Part shown: in pieces, positions 18,823 to 26,276 of the stretch
Layout: each line of letters starts with the position of its first letter
Position numbering within the stretch: position 1 is the first letter of the stretch
Virus record (IMG/VR): IMGVR_UViG_3300045741_000327
From: a virus
Length of the DNA stretch: 26,757 nt
Reading direction: 5' to 3' (one strand)
The notes under the pieces: generated by a model
Database searches by the model: none
Told to the model about the DNA's origin: nothing
Seen by the model: only the letters and a program-made list of their open reading frames with translations
Position numbers and translations under genes: made by a program

Positions 18823-18845
18823 TAGAAGTAGGGAGAGTTCGACCG

Positions 18846-18887
18846 ACGGCAGGGTATCCTCGAAAGGGGATCCCTGCCGTTGTTTTT
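18846..18887 (+). terminator. rho-independent terminator after the MVP gene (ACGGCAGGG...CCCTGCCGT stem, then TGTTTTT)
   Basis: 9-bp perfect outer stem plus T-tract, read directly. Confidence 0.7.
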
Positions 18888-18958
18888 AGCCCAGAGTGAA
18901 AGACCCCAAAGAAGAGGGGATAAGAGGGGGTAGGAGCCCCTTTCCTCTGGAGAGAGCA

Positions 18959-19762
18959 ATGGACGAAGAGTGGAAGAAGGAGAGACTCAGGCAACTGAAG
19001 CTGAGAAAGCTTCAGTCAGGCAAACAGGACAACTTTGGCCCAATCAGTGCCTCCGCCTCTGGTCCTTTTGGTGGACACGTCGCATTGAGCCGAAGCAAGA
19101 CGCGGGGAGTTGGTCGTGGGAGCGTTGCAGTTACTACAGCCCGTGCCAGAACGTTGCGAGGAGCGGGCTTGGTTGACCCCGCAGTTGAAATCGCCAATGC
19201 CATCAATGAGGCACTTGATCCCACCACTGCGAACGGGAAAGTGCGCACTTTGAATGAGATGACCGAGGACGAGAAGCTGAAGTTGGCGACTTCTCTCGGA
19301 GCCAAGATCGCCCCACCTCCAGAGAAGATGGTCAGCCCGACTTCGTCGGCGAAGAGCCCCAATGAACCGACGAAGATCGAAGGAGTTCTCTGCCGCCACA
19401 CTACCGAGAAGGCAATGCTGTTCTCGTATCACGGCAGAGAGCAGTGGGTCCCCAGATACTTCCTCGAGACGAACATCAAGGATGCCGGCGGCACTGGGTG
19501 GATCATCATTCCCCACTGGGTGGCAGTGGACAAGGGATTCGTGGTCAGCGACGCATCAACTGCATTTGAGGTGCGCTCGGACCTCTTGAACCAACTGCAC
19601 AAGCTCATGTTCAAACTGGAGAACGAGAGCGTGCAGGAGACGGACGATCAACACTCTGACGAGTTCTACAGAGGAGTGAAGATCGGAAAGGCAATGGCAG
19701 TAAACGAGCTGCGGGATCTTCTCAAGCGGTTCGACAGAACCCCCAAAACCGAAATCAGGTGA
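18959..19762 (+). CDS. hypothetical protein (267 aa)
   Basis: Internal Met of ORF 18896. GGAGAGAG RBS. Confidence 0.65.
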   Translation: MDEEWKKERLRQLKLRKLQSGKQDNFGPISASASGPFGGHVALSRSKTRGVGRGSVAVTTARARTLRGAGLVDPAVEIANAINEALDPTTANGKVRTLNEMTEDEKLKLATSLGAKIAPPPEKMVSPTSSAKSPNEPTKIEGVLCRHTTEKAMLFSYHGREQWVPRYFLETNIKDAGGTGWIIIPHWVAVDKGFVVSDASTAFEVRSDLLNQLHKLMFKLENESVQETDDQHSDEFYRGVKIGKAMAVNELRDLLKRFDRTPKTEIR

Positions 19763-20334
19763 ACATGGACTTCAAGAAGATCATCTACCTTGGAGTCTTC
19801 TTGGACGAGAAGTCCAAGATGGCTCTTCTGGAGCAGTTCCCACCCATGCACCCCAACATCTTCGGGGCCCACGTCACCTTGGCGTTCAGGCCGACTGAAG
19901 AGGAGATCAAGCGGTTCGAGCCAGCGATCGGCAAGACGGCCACGATCGACGTCAACGGCCTGAAGTACAACACCAAGGGCCAGGCGATCGAGGTCATGGT
20001 TCTGGACGACCTCCTCCACCTCGACCAGAACCCGTTCCGCAAGCCCGGCGAGCAGCCTCTGCACATCACCATCAGCACCGCCGCCGGCGTTCCTCCCAAG
20101 TACAGCAAGGAGCTCGTCCAGGACGACACGGTCGCCTGGAGGCCTGTCTCCATGAAGCTGACTGGGGTCTTCAATACATTCCCCACCTGGGAAGCGGAGC
20201 TGGTCCCTTGCGAAGATTGCAAGGCTGACCACGCTGATCCGATCACCGCAGCCGCTGAGAGGATCGCTATTGGGGCCAAGCCGAAGGGGCTCTGCTGCGA
20301 GTGGTCTCGCAGGCAACTGGAGAAGAAGAAGTGA
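19759..20334 (+). CDS. 2H phosphoesterase superfamily protein (LigT / 2'-5' RNA ligase / cyclic phosphodiesterase-like)
   Basis: Two H-x-T-x motifs in hydrophobic context (GAHVTLAF and PLHITIST) about 65 aa apart, the defining signature of the 2H fold. GTGA overlap with the previous gene. Confidence 0.65.
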   Translation: MNMDFKKIIYLGVFLDEKSKMALLEQFPPMHPNIFGAHVTLAFRPTEEEIKRFEPAIGKTATIDVNGLKYNTKGQAIEVMVLDDLLHLDQNPFRKPGEQPLHITISTAAGVPPKYSKELVQDDTVAWRPVSMKLTGVFNTFPTWEAELVPCEDCKADHADPITAAAERIAIGAKPKGLCCEWSRRQLEKKK

Positions 20335-20555
20335 CCTCCAGAGACACCATAATCGACGGCATCAAGCGGGGCACTTACTGCCCTGAGTGCGGCCGTCGAT
20401 TCACCCAAACCGACATTGACCAGGGCAGGCACTTCTCAAATCAAAAGTGCCTGACCTTGGTCGTCGGTGTCATGGCCGGAGCTGAAGGACGTCAAGAGAT
20501 GGCCAGAGATGCCAGGCGCTGGGCCAAGAAGAACCCACCCAAAACGAGGAAGTAA
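20331..20555 (+). CDS. hypothetical zinc-ribbon protein (CPECGRRF; 74 aa)
   Basis: GTG inside ORF 20301 with GTGA overlap. Confidence 0.45.
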   Translation: MTSRDTIIDGIKRGTYCPECGRRFTQTDIDQGRHFSNQKCLTLVVGVMAGAEGRQEMARDARRWAKKNPPKTRK

Positions 20556-20905
20556 TGGCAGTCAATCAGTGCGATGGATGCCGGGCCGGAAAGCCTCTAG
20601 TCAAAATCGTGAGGGGCGAGTTCGTCAAAGACCCCTCTGGCCATTTGCACGTCATGAACGACAAGTATTGGGAAGACAACAAACAGTACTCTGACCTCAT
20701 GTCCTGCACCAAAGACCTCTATGAGGAAAAGCCGGACAAGACCAGAAGCTACCTGGGAGATGGCGTCTACGTCAGATATGACGGCCACGCGCTGATCGTC
20801 ACCACCGAAGATGGAGTACACGTAACCAATACCATCATCTTGGAGCCACACGTTTTCCACTCGCTTGTCGAGTACGTAGACAAGCTGAAGAAGGGAGCAA
20901 CATGA
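20555..20905 (+). CDS. hypothetical protein (116 aa)
   Basis: ORF track. TAATG overlap. Confidence 0.6.
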   Translation: MAVNQCDGCRAGKPLVKIVRGEFVKDPSGHLHVMNDKYWEDNKQYSDLMSCTKDLYEEKPDKTRSYLGDGVYVRYDGHALIVTTEDGVHVTNTIILEPHVFHSLVEYVDKLKKGAT

Positions 20906-21087
20906 GCAAGGAAGTCGATCCTGTAGTCGTCAAGATTTGGGCGCGTAACTTGTTCACACAGGCATTCGTCTCCCAAGTGAAGCACCACTTCGTTCCAGAC
21001 AAGGAGGATGTCGACAAGCTGCTCAAGGTCTCGATCTACGCTGCCACGCAGCTGGAGAAGAAGCTCAGCATGACGGAAGGAAAGTGA
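20902..21087 (+). CDS. hypothetical protein (61 aa)
   Basis: ORF track. ATGA overlap. Confidence 0.5.
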   Translation: MSKEVDPVVVKIWARNLFTQAFVSQVKHHFVPDKEDVDKLLKVSIYAATQLEKKLSMTEGK

Positions 21088-24840: not shown

Positions 24841-25098
24841 ATGCCACAAAACATCAACAAACCTCCCATCCACATCAAGCATTCAGACTTGCTGCGAGAG
24901 GGGTCTTCTCGTTTCGCATCCCAATGTCCGGTGTGCCATGAGGGGATGCTCCCAGTGTGCAGGAGAGCTCAAGACATGAGCCTGGTCAGGGAAGACCTCT
25001 GCATCCTCTGCGGCCAGGAGTTCGTCTACACCGACGACCAGATCAACGGAGAAGTCCTTCCACCTTTGCCCAACATGTTGGGTTACGGAAAGGCGTGA
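24841..25098 (+). CDS. hypothetical zinc-ribbon protein (CPVC...CILC; 85 aa)
   Basis: ORF track. Confidence 0.5.
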   Translation: MPQNINKPPIHIKHSDLLREGSSRFASQCPVCHEGMLPVCRRAQDMSLVREDLCILCGQEFVYTDDQINGEVLPPLPNMLGYGKA

Positions 25099-25100
25099 GG

Positions 25101-25277
25101 ATGGTGAAAAAGCCGCAGATCAAGCTCACCAAACATGAGCAGAGAATCCTCTTGGACGCGATCACGAAAGGAATCACCGAACCCAACTGGGAGAAGAAGG
25201 TCAAGGCCAGGATCGAGAAGCTCATCAATGAAGCGGCCGAGAGGCTCGCCAAGAAAGGAATCAAGGTGAAAGACTGA
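25101..25277 (+). CDS. hypothetical basic protein (58 aa)
   Basis: Internal Met of ORF 24957. GTGAGG upstream. Confidence 0.4.
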   Translation: MVKKPQIKLTKHEQRILLDAITKGITEPNWEKKVKARIEKLINEAAERLAKKGIKVKD

Positions 25278-25810
25278 TGGCTGTACACTCTGTCATCTTC
25301 TGCGGCAGCAAGCCGAGGAATCACATCTACAACCCCGAAAACGAGCAGAGCGTCGAGGAAACCAAGAAGCTCGTGCGTGAGTCTGTCGTTCGCGGGTGCG
25401 TGATCTTCATGCAGCAGGGCAGTGGAGAGAGGGGGTACGTCGTCCGGGTCCCCGAATTCAGCCCCGTATTTGAAAAGGTCTACGTCGTCGAACAATACTT
25501 TTCAATGCGGGTGAAGAGGGATGGGTCTACCTGGAAACAGATGAAGCAAGAAGTCTCCATCGCCATTACCGAGATGCGACTGGCCCAGATGTTCAGCCAA
25601 GCCAACCTCGATGCGGCAAAGAGGGCTGTCGATGAGCTCGTCCCACTCAGAGAAACCCTCAAGAAGACCCAAGCGAGACTCGCCGAAGAGGAGGCCAAGA
25701 CCCGGAACCTCAAGCATGTCGTCAATGGGCTGAAGAACATGATGGTCGACATCTACCGGGAGAAGATCGAGAAGGATGTCCAGAAGGCCTTCGATGAGTT
25801 CAAGGTCTAA
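25277..25810 (+). CDS. hypothetical protein with coiled-coil C-terminus (177 aa)
   Basis: ORF track. TGATG overlap. Confidence 0.65.
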   Translation: MAVHSVIFCGSKPRNHIYNPENEQSVEETKKLVRESVVRGCVIFMQQGSGERGYVVRVPEFSPVFEKVYVVEQYFSMRVKRDGSTWKQMKQEVSIAITEMRLAQMFSQANLDAAKRAVDELVPLRETLKKTQARLAEEEAKTRNLKHVVNGLKNMMVDIYREKIEKDVQKAFDEFKV

Positions 25811-25855
25811 CTGGGAAGGTCTCACGGGTTCTACCCACCAGAAGGAGAACAAGCA

Positions 25856-26140
25856 ATGGCATGGGATACAGACGATCTTGAAACTCTTCGGGACATCCGG
25901 GCACAGCTGGCGATCATCGCCGATGTCTTGACCAAGACCACCAGCCACAGCGGCGATGAAATCAAGATGCTGGCAGAGAAGATCTTCATCCAGAACATCT
26001 CCAACATCCCCTACAGCCCCCACGTCACCAAGATGATGGCCGAGGAGTCCATCAAGAAGGCCTACCTCTTCTACGAAACCTTTGATGAGCAGAAGTCAGA
26101 CATCATCAGAGAGGTCGAGGAAGAGAGCAACCCCCAGTAG
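25856..26140 (+). CDS. hypothetical acidic protein (94 aa)
   Basis: ORF track. AAGGAGAA RBS. Confidence 0.65.
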   Translation: MAWDTDDLETLRDIRAQLAIIADVLTKTTSHSGDEIKMLAEKIFIQNISNIPYSPHVTKMMAEESIKKAYLFYETFDEQKSDIIREVEEESNPQ

Positions 26141-26160
26141 AACTACCCCCACAAATTCTT

Positions 26161-26276
26161 GAAAGCCAGGAGCCCTCTGGGCCACCCGCTTTCTTTAGCC
26201 TAGAAACGGCAATTTTGGGCTATTTGGGGTGACAAGGTTTTAGCCGAGAAGTTCAACATCTCCTACGGAGGATGCA
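26161..26276 (+). promoter_or_regulatory. intergenic cassette copy: TTTCTTTAGCC + AGAAACGGCAATTTTGGGCTATTTGGGGTGACAAGGTTTTAGCC
   Basis: Read directly. Nearly collinear with the copy at 23586-23640. Confidence 0.45.

Follow-up and report, generated by a model that had tools for sequence, protein, structure and literature searches.

Recurring intergenic cassettes with predicted terminator and promoter modules in an uncultured phage

Introduction

What do the cassettes that recur between the genes of the virus record IMGVR_UViG_3300045741_000327 do, and what kind of factor would read them? The record from IMG/VR is an entire metagenomic contig of 26,757 nt, which is referred to here as the window, and all of its credible genes lie on the plus strand. 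Its intergenic regions repeatedly contain a GC-rich hairpin with a short T-run, followed at some distance by a G-rich motif of the form GGGAYAAG. The original prediction, made from the letters of the DNA, was that such cassettes are terminators fused to a phage-specific promoter class, for example of middle or late promoters. Nothing assigns them to a middle or late class, but terminator-like hairpins joined to promoters that depart from the sigma-70 consensus are borne out in silico by the restriction of the motifs to the coding strand, a fixed spacing of 17 nt between two sequence elements, a T-purine step downstream of them and the presence of conserved islands amid differing flanks. The reading of the cassettes as promoter plus terminator is well supported at this level, and its probability can be put at about 0.72.

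In this model, each cassette would act as a transcription punctuation unit composed of two independent modules. The first module, a GC-rich hairpin with a stem lengthened by purine-rich and pyrimidine-rich arms and followed by a short T-run and AGC(C), would end the upstream transcript or stabilise its 3' end, probably as a leaky intrinsic terminator. The second module would be a bipartite promoter with the geometry of the sigma-70 family, in which a -35-like element gGCAA(W), in its fullest form GGCAAWTTTrGCC, is separated by a 17-nt spacer from an extended -10-like element GGGAYAAGA. Initiation would occur at an invariant purine 5-6 nt past the hexamer, preceded by T, which predicts leaders of 29-55 nt and one leaderless transcript (at 23359).

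A hairpin followed by a short T-run

The first module was expected in at least six intergenic regions. Folding reveals eight such regions between 18.8 and 26.7 kb, each with a stable hairpin directly 5' of T(3-5)AGC(C), on the coding strand and within 5-60 nt after a stop codon, with folding energies (dG) ranging from -9.3 to -31.5 kcal/mol. The associated sequence TTTTAGCC occurs six times on the plus strand and not at all on the minus strand, for 0.34 occurrences expected, and none of 100 shuffled sequences reached six. The copies are found at 18884, 22348, 23320, 23586 and 26238, with one match in a coding region (9140); the copy at 23320 is exact, even though the region around 23326 had been taken for a weak one. 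The broader pattern TTTAGC[CT] is found ten times on the plus and twice on the minus strand (0.76 expected), and variant T-runs exist at 22825 (ATTTTTACCCCC), 24523 (TAGCTC), 26194 (TTTAGCC) and 26640 (TTTTAGGCC). While the sequences of the hairpins differ among cassettes, the T-run with AGC(C) is common to the window and three related contigs designated L122, L130 and L131. The trinucleotide directly 3' of the short T-run is AGC or AGG in these four genomes (in the window at 18884, 22348, 23320, 23586, 26193 and 26640). TTTTAGC is also present at the predicted start region of two promoters, at 23631 and 26238.

The distance from TTTAGC to the GAYAAG hexamer of the second module varies between 7 and 38 nt, which implies that the hairpin module is independent of the promoter module. 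TTTTAGCC belongs with the hairpin and not with the promoter, and the same variable distance rules out TTTAGCC as a -35 element. The pyrimidine-rich 3' arms of the hairpins lengthen the T-tract, and the hairpin modules are probably leaky intrinsic terminators or 3'-end stabilisers.

A bipartite promoter-like element

Motifs resembling GGGAYAAG are found in nine intergenic regions of the window, every one on the coding strand. The form GGGGAYARG has five plus-strand occurrences (18916, 21558, 22363, 22862 and 23621) for 0.69 expected, and GGGAYAAG itself has seven on the plus strand and one on the minus strand (1.3 expected). The recurrence that had been described for 18914, 21558 and 22362 thus stands, although these coordinates are off by 0-2 nt and the motif at 18916 reads GGGGATAAGAGG. 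Of three supposedly near-identical 45-nt blocks, two share GGCAAATTTRGCCYTTTC exactly (22842 and 23601; 0.06 expected), while the block at 26208 departs from it at 4 of 18 positions, which makes it a related copy. A duplication near 23622 and 26229 was confirmed as the exact 14-mer GACAAGGTTTTAGC, shared by 23624 and 26231. In a comparison of intergenic (3.1 kb) with coding k-mers, an over-represented intergenic element was indeed recovered: TTTAGC(C), TTTTAG, ATAAGA and GGGATAAG rank at the top, with p values of 1e-6 to 1e-10.

The geometry of the element becomes apparent from an alignment on the hexamer of 29 intergenic sites from the window, L122, L130 and L131. It consists of gGCAA at -23..-19, a 17-nt spacer, GAYAAG at 0..5 and, after another 4 nt, a T-purine step at +10/+11. 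All 29 sites have G at -2, 24 of them also have it at -1, and GAYAAG is constant except for Y and one A-to-G change, with A at its second and G at its sixth position in 29/29 sites. A is found at +6 in 22 sites and T at +10 in 24, and CAA occupies -21..-19. As the three related blocks could dominate such a consensus, a separate set of 31 sites without the GGCAAWTTT block is informative: A is retained at -20 in 23/31 (p 6e-8) and at -19 in 24/31 (p 7e-9), T at +10 in 23/31 and a purine at +11 in all 31. The geometry is kept in these sites, so the consensus is not driven by the near-identical blocks. In the 45-nt block the promoter module takes its fullest form, and the GGC-AAATTT-(N)-GCC of the block forms an imperfect dyad that exists in a subset of sites only.

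A position weight matrix (PWM) trained on the relatives alone finds ten plus-strand matches in the window and two weak ones on the minus strand, with 23624, 26231, 22865, 22366, 7873, 16060, 21561, 24549 and 18919 as its top-ranked sites. At a threshold of 12, the window and the three relatives together have 37 matches on the plus strand and none on the minus strand. Each intergenic gap of at least 70 nt between 15.7 and 26.3 kb holds a site, with the end of the hexamer 34-60 nt before the start codon. When L122 is included, nearly all hexamers end 24-60 nt before the start codon, compared with 5 nt for the predicted leaderless site at 23348, and a Shine-Dalgarno sequence stands apart from the motif. 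The motifs, their geometry, strand, position and conservation are direct observations; the coordinates in the window are collected in Table 1.

Table 1. Cassette modules and promoter-like elements of the window; terminator and promoter labels are predictions
Feature	Position	Strand	Description
Promoter-like element upstream of the 905-aa MVP-like gene	16037..16071	+	GACAAA, 17 nt, cGGGATAAGA; predicted start ~16071; PWM match
Cassette 1, terminator module	18844..18891	+	Hairpin 18844-18882, then TTTTTAGCC; dG -31.5, region z -5.2; TTTTAGCC at 18884
Cassette 1, promoter module	18896..18930	+	GTGAAA, 17 nt, GGGGATAAGA; hexamer end 34 nt before ATG 18959
Promoter-like element	21538..21572	+	GGGGATAAGAAGATGTA; in 5' arm of long hairpin ~21546-21607
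Cassette 2, terminator module	22321..22355	+	Hairpin 22321-22345, AG, TTTTAGCC; dG -20.3
Cassette 2, promoter module	22343..22377	+	GGGGATAAGATG; -35 position overlaps hairpin end
Cassette 3, terminator module	22747..22836	+	Hairpins in 22747-22793 and at 22800-22824 (dG -9.3), then ATTTTTACCCCC
Cassette 3, promoter module, full version	22842..22876	+	GGCAAATTTGGCC...GGGGATAGGA
Cassette 4, terminator module	23287..23327	+	Hairpin 23287-23320, TTTAGCC; dG -19.5; passes terminator scan
Cassette 4, weak promoter	23325..23359	+	GCCAAA, 17 nt, GGTGATAAG; below PWM threshold 12
Cassette 5, terminator module	23561..23593	+	Hairpin 23561-23586, TTTAGCC; dG -14.1
Cassette 5, promoter module, full version	23601..23635	+	GGCAAATTTAGCC...GGGGGACAAGGTTTTAG; best PWM score of the window; aligns with L122 3447-3521
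Cassette 6, terminator module	24486..24528	+	Hairpin 24486-24522, TAGCTC; dG -14.2
Cassette 6, promoter module	24526..24560	+	CTCAAA, 17 nt, cGGGACAAGAGAGTAAGCCGAGG
Cassette 7, terminator module	26161..26200	+	Hairpin 26161-26193, TTTAGCC; dG -14.8
Cassette 7, promoter module, diverged full version	26208..26242	+	GGCAATTTTGGGC...GGGGTGACAAGGTTTTAG
Cassette 8, terminator module only	26608..26648	+	Hairpin 26608-26639, TTTTAGGCC; dG -19.5; passes terminator scan
Variant promoter-like site, tRNA half	7850..7884	+	GGTAAG, 17 nt, gtCATAAGAATATGG; upstream of small ORF 7957; PWM 21.4

Predicted start points and leaders

Two genes agree with the predicted start points and illustrate what these would mean for translation. 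A Shine-Dalgarno sequence is missing from the 66-aa open reading frame (ORF) at 23359, and the predicted +11 start of its weak promoter (motif at 23348) coincides with the first base of its ATG, so that the mRNA is predicted to be leaderless. In the second case, the promoter motif is located in the 5' arm of a hairpin at 21543-21612 (dG -32.6, z -6.0), the 3' arm of which contains the Shine-Dalgarno sequence of the gene at 21613. As the predicted start at 21572 is inside the hairpin, a transcript from there loses the 5' arm. Read-through RNA would therefore be predicted to hide the ribosome-binding site of gene 21613, while RNA starting at about 21572 would not. Late promoters of phage T4 of the gene e (lysozyme) type lie within a hairpin that hides the ribosome-binding site. 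The arrangement at 21543-21612 is similar, with the motif in one arm, the Shine-Dalgarno sequence in the other and a predicted stability of -33 kcal/mol, but it differs in being the single such case in the window.

In most of the predicted leaders, the Shine-Dalgarno sequence GGAG forms the 3' arm of a small hairpin consisting of CUCC, three bases and GGAG, for example at 18941-18952, 22393-22405, 21595-21607, 24576-24588 and 26257-26268. Leader sequence of the type CCTCTGGAG is also present in L122 and L130.

DNA signal or RNA signal?

From the observed pattern we infer termination, initiation and the kind of polymerase involved, and several points weigh against doing so. The T-runs are 3-5 nt long, which is short for terminators, as the U-tract of an intrinsic terminator has about 6-8 residues; two of the eight hairpins pass a terminator rule of at least five T in eight positions. 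The conserved AGC after the T-run is not accounted for by intrinsic termination. The -10-like hexamer ends in G at 29/29 sites and never in T. A check for a sigma factor or RNA polymerase of the phage's own gave no such domain by Pfam in 56 ORFs of the window, where absence means little because the window is a fragment, and no complete gene for either by Pfam in 73 ORFs (40 kb) of the relatives. At seven sites of L131, AGGAGG follows the hexamer after exactly 5 nt, with the start codon 17-20 nt away, and this spacing would also be expected of an RNA element that acts together with the ribosome-binding site. Lastly, several of the sites are paralogous or orthologous copies, so that the counts overstate their independence.

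The spacing in L131 and the shortness of the T-runs are also what speaks for the main rival, an explanation at the level of RNA. Here, GGGAUAAGA would be a start-associated element that acts in concert with the ribosome-binding site, or else it would be recognised by a phage endoribonuclease or RNA-binding protein, and the hairpins would serve to process long polycistronic transcripts or to stabilise 3' ends within them. A precedent exists in the Cluster K mycobacteriophages, which carry the asymmetric sequence GGGATAGGAGCCC by their start codons, with its function left open (PMC3203893, PMC12699233). This start-associated sequence (SAS), defined with up to 2 mismatches, is placed 3-7 bp upstream of start codons and has the ribosome-binding site inside it (PMC3203893). 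SAS and its extended form (ESAS) are similar to the motif described here in that they are asymmetric, start with GGGATA, have a single orientation, are concentrated in the non-structural part of the genome and often follow an inverted repeat. However, the motif lies farther upstream than SAS (mostly 24-60 nt in the window and L122, 17-20 nt in L131), at a variable distance and with a separate Shine-Dalgarno sequence, and the hairpins are not conserved in sequence whereas the repeats of ESAS are. The SAS consensus GGGATAGGAGCCC is not enriched in the window, with 10 matches at up to three mismatches for 9.0 expected; one match with a single mismatch is found at 18927, 19 nt from an ATG. GGCAA at 17 nt upstream across an unconserved spacer and the T-purine step at +10/+11 also fit DNA recognition of the sigma type better, making an RNA-level signal distinctly improbable.

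A second alternative would keep the recognition at the DNA level but assign it to a phage DNA-binding regulator, with GGGAYAAG as a stoperator-like operator and GGCAAATTTrGCC as an activator or repressor box over the -35 region. Stoperators of Cluster A mycobacteriophages are asymmetric sites repeated genome-wide, and the MotA box overlaps the -35 region of T4 middle promoters. Pope et al. contrasted stoperators with SAS (PMC3203893). The sites in the window are likewise asymmetric, intergenic and of one orientation, a subset of them contains the imperfect dyad, and L122 encodes a 165-aa protein in which the only recognisable part is a sigma region-4.2 helix-turn-helix. Operators are nonetheless a highly improbable explanation. 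There is one site per gene start, at the distance of a promoter, the two-element geometry and the T-purine step are present in sites with and without the dyad, and neither the window nor the examined DNA of its relatives yielded a repressor, an integrase or any other gene of lysogeny. For GGCAAATTTrGCC, a role as a regulator's box is compatible with the promoter reading.

What would read the promoter

If the second module is a promoter, its similarity to the sigma-70 family lies in the layout: two elements 17 nt apart, A at the second hexamer position, G-rich bases directly before the hexamer that resemble an extended -10, and a pyrimidine-purine start at 5-6 nt past it. The sequences differ, as the hexamer GAYAAG has G at both ends and the upstream element is GGCAA instead of TTGACA, and a sigma-70 scan detected none of the cassettes. 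T at the last position of the -10 element is near-universal in the sigma-70 family. Since the hexamer invariably closes with G, at a position where sigma-70 requires T, these promoters would be read by a non-housekeeping specificity, and the reader could be a phage-encoded or phage-modified sigma factor or an alternative sigma factor of the host.

A rather unlikely alternative is that these are ordinary early promoters read by the unmodified housekeeping sigma factor of a host lineage with a consensus other than that of E. coli, in which case they would not be phage-specific. No housekeeping consensus is known to end its hexamer in an invariant G, and phages of similar GC content that share a gene with the window (L139 and L140) lack the motif. 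The genes served by the cassettes do fit early promoters, being small ORFans, one or two per cassette, as in the early hyperplastic regions of T4-like phages with their host-type promoters (PMC2839356). The L131 hexamers GATAAG, TATAAG and CATAAG come near to TATAAT, and no phage sigma factor was found in the DNA searched.

In the DNA searched, the 165-aa protein of L122 (1566-2063) is the single exception. Its sigma-70 region 4.2 helix-turn-helix spans residues 70-108, and it is closest to the C-terminus of RpoD and to MzaA, but without region 2 it is not a complete sigma factor. It has no homologue in the window; a 109-aa helix-turn-helix-like ORF there (8247-8576) belongs to no significant family and shows no similarity to the L122 protein.

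Two other promoter classes were compared. The consensus of FliA (sigma-28) is TAAAGTTT-N11-GCCGATAA (quoted in PMC7286023), and the full version of the module, GCAAATTT-N11-GGGGAYAA, has the same 8-N11-8 layout with AA..TTT and G..GATAA cores. The likeness is one of layout only, as there are no matches to the FliA promoter at up to three mismatches, the best sites agree at about 10-11 of 16 positions and the CGA core reads GGA. A sigma-54 promoter was dropped because the GG-GC spacing in GGCAAATTTAGC is 10 and not the 12 of sigma-54 promoters.

Conservation of the cassettes and gene shuffling

The relatives were reached by two routes. Among 5.8 billion proteins, just one is homologous to the 160-aa protein encoded 3' of the best cassette, and it is encoded on L122, a contig of 97 kb. 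Only 2 of 27 L122 proteins are shared with the window, and the layout of the intergenic regions is alike nonetheless, with GGGAYAAG occurring 11 times on the plus strand and never on the minus strand in 14 kb of L122, at 30-60 nt from the following start codon in almost every case. L130 and L131 were found through a gene for a homologue of the major vault protein (MVP), with protein identities of 65% (GC 0.60) and 47% (GC 0.48), respectively. Both bear the motif, in L131 with variation in the hexamer. Upstream of the MVP orthologues of the window, L130 and L131, only GGGATAAGAA(G/T)ATG and the Shine-Dalgarno sequence are conserved. Other phages with the MVP gene lack the motif (L126-129 with 39% identity and GC 0.44, the only kind that a metagenome scan with the MVP protein returned, LR756501 with GC 0.33, L139 and L140 with GC 0.63-0.64), which implies that it marks a clade rather than the gene.

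Searches of IMG/VR added no members. A related-locus search with two window proteins returned no relatives, a scan with GGCAAATTTNGCCNTTTC gave at least 120 single matches that were taken as chance, and a scan with GGGATAAGAAGATGTA gave six chance matches on low-GC contigs without further sites.

Nucleotide-level matches between the window and L122 exist in six places, four of which are cassettes beside unrelated genes. Window 24480-24600 is 76% identical to L122 276-392, with unrelated downstream proteins, and a second pair, window 26147-26276 and L122 3402-3540, reaches 72% identity over 139 nt, again with unrelated downstream genes; the latter L122 cassette sits upstream of the homologue of a different window gene. 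The terminator of cassette 8 is 87% identical to L122 3414-3460 and is followed by a repeat-bearing non-coding region. Gene content by the cassette after the MVP gene also differs between the window and its closer relative L130. As the cassettes are 70-87% identical while the genes between them differ, they probably double as recombination joints for gene shuffling, a reading of aligned sequences from a few genome pairs of distant relatives.

The same has been described for the promoter early stem-loop (PeSL) cassettes of T4-like phages, in which a promoter and a stem-loop precede ORFans and allow modular shuffling (Arbiol et al. 2010, PMC2839356; Comeau et al. 2014, PMC4122927). Like PeSLs, the elements described here are composites of a stem-loop terminator and a conserved promoter, repeated before ORFans in a variable region of the genome: nine cassettes are spread over 16-26.7 kb, and the genes downstream have no Pfam family above the curated cut-off. 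In both cases homologous cassettes border non-homologous genes in related phages. There are differences, however. The hairpin here precedes the promoter at variable spacing whereas the PeSL stem-loop is within or around it, the promoter does not follow the sigma-70 consensus, recombination between the cassettes is inferred from comparison, and the phage is not visibly T4-like, with no T4 core genes seen in the window.

The tRNA half of the window

The cassette had been described as absent from the half of the window that contains the tRNA genes, but it is sparse there rather than absent. The motif is found at 7873 as an CATAAGAAT variant, which L131 shares, and a further, strong copy outside the range first considered is at 16058 (ranked above as 16060), upstream of the 905-aa gene. 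TTTAGC follows gene ends at 7346 and 7841 as well, and the homologous regions of two relatives have one motif each (L125 6741 and L123 8035). The proposal of a different transcriptional regime for this half is weakened by the same motif occurring at low density here and in L125 and L123. Genes in the tRNA half are tightly packed; it differs in the density of punctuation, which is no evidence for a second transcription system.

Some single sites in these regions are recorded as observations. In L123, a relative of 160 kb, GGGATAAGAAG (8033-8060) precedes, by about 13 nt, a stretch that resembles the beginning of a tRNA gene, a candidate tRNA, and a weak GAGAAG site at 6938 of the window is just before tRNA-Arg (6952). 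The sole intergenic sigma-70-like match of the window (TTAAGA, 17 nt, TAAAAT at 7389-7417, in the region 7335-7433) is directly 3' of a -28 kcal/mol hairpin at 7354-7388.

Gene content and place among phages

The most likely source of the window is a large uncultured phage, whose genome it would cover in part. It has 13 tRNA genes within its first 7 kb, which alone reach the Rfam threshold, and no Rfam family was found at the cassettes. It also contains a phrog_1735 / DUF8224 gene, which is widespread in phages and of unknown function. Megablast and blastn of the window region against 50,697 phage records gave no match at the DNA level.

The MVP homologue of 905 aa is encoded at 16105-18822 (MVP_shoulder 2e-23), and the GC content of its gene is 0.62-0.64, compared with about 0.50 on its 5' side and 0.56 on its 3' side. 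The protein's matches among phage records are confined to huge uncultured phages; MVPs in viruses have already been reported (bioRxiv 10.1101/2023.11.10.566534). The nearest named bacterial homologues of two window genes, MVP among them, come from Myxococcota, which is a weak hint at the host. The window also encodes a ribosomal protein L7/L12 at 2473-2865 (Pfam Ribosomal_L12 6e-22, dimerisation domain 1e-5; the match was placed on this ORF from its sequence), and a 63-aa ORF at 7143-7334 has a weak DUF1931 match (E 0.003) under the curated cut-off.

A conserved non-coding region is located 3' of the last cassette terminator, at 26589-26757 of the window, continuing into L121 12900-13309, and at 4311-5104 of L122. 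It contains two direct repeats 57-59 nt apart, followed by blocks such as ACCACTGTCYCCCTC, CCGGCGAGGSATGAA, GGGGAGTGGCGAGA and TTACACAGTG, and it is 65% identical between two phages with few genes in common. No ORF was called in the L122 copy and no Rfam match was above threshold; the region is a candidate for either a non-coding RNA or an iteron-bearing replication origin.

Significance

The consensus is new and comes from an unstudied phage clade, while the kind of regulatory signal is familiar. For an uncultured group of phages with almost no annotated genes, it offers a way into the transcription units. It yields predictions of start points and leader lengths, of a leaderless gene and of a gene whose translation may vary with the promoter that gave rise to the RNA. 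Sigma factors of the sigma-70 family flip out the T at the last -10 position. The invariant G at this position predicts that the sigma pocket is unusual or that a different protein recognises the element.

A more far-reaching model, tentative and on balance doubtful, is that a sparsely sampled clade of large uncultured phages (the window, L122, L130 and L131; GC 48-60%) would direct much of its gene expression through a specificity of its own, GGCAA-N17-GGGAYAAG, read by a phage factor, for which a protein with only region 4.2, like that of L122, would be one candidate acting on GGCAA. The hairpin, T-run and AGC might then be a factor-dependent terminator or processing site, and the cassettes would serve as joints outside the T4-like phages. 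Homologous cassettes beside unrelated genes suggest that shuffling of the PeSL type is not confined to T4-like phages, and current concepts are thereby extended to a new group without being changed.

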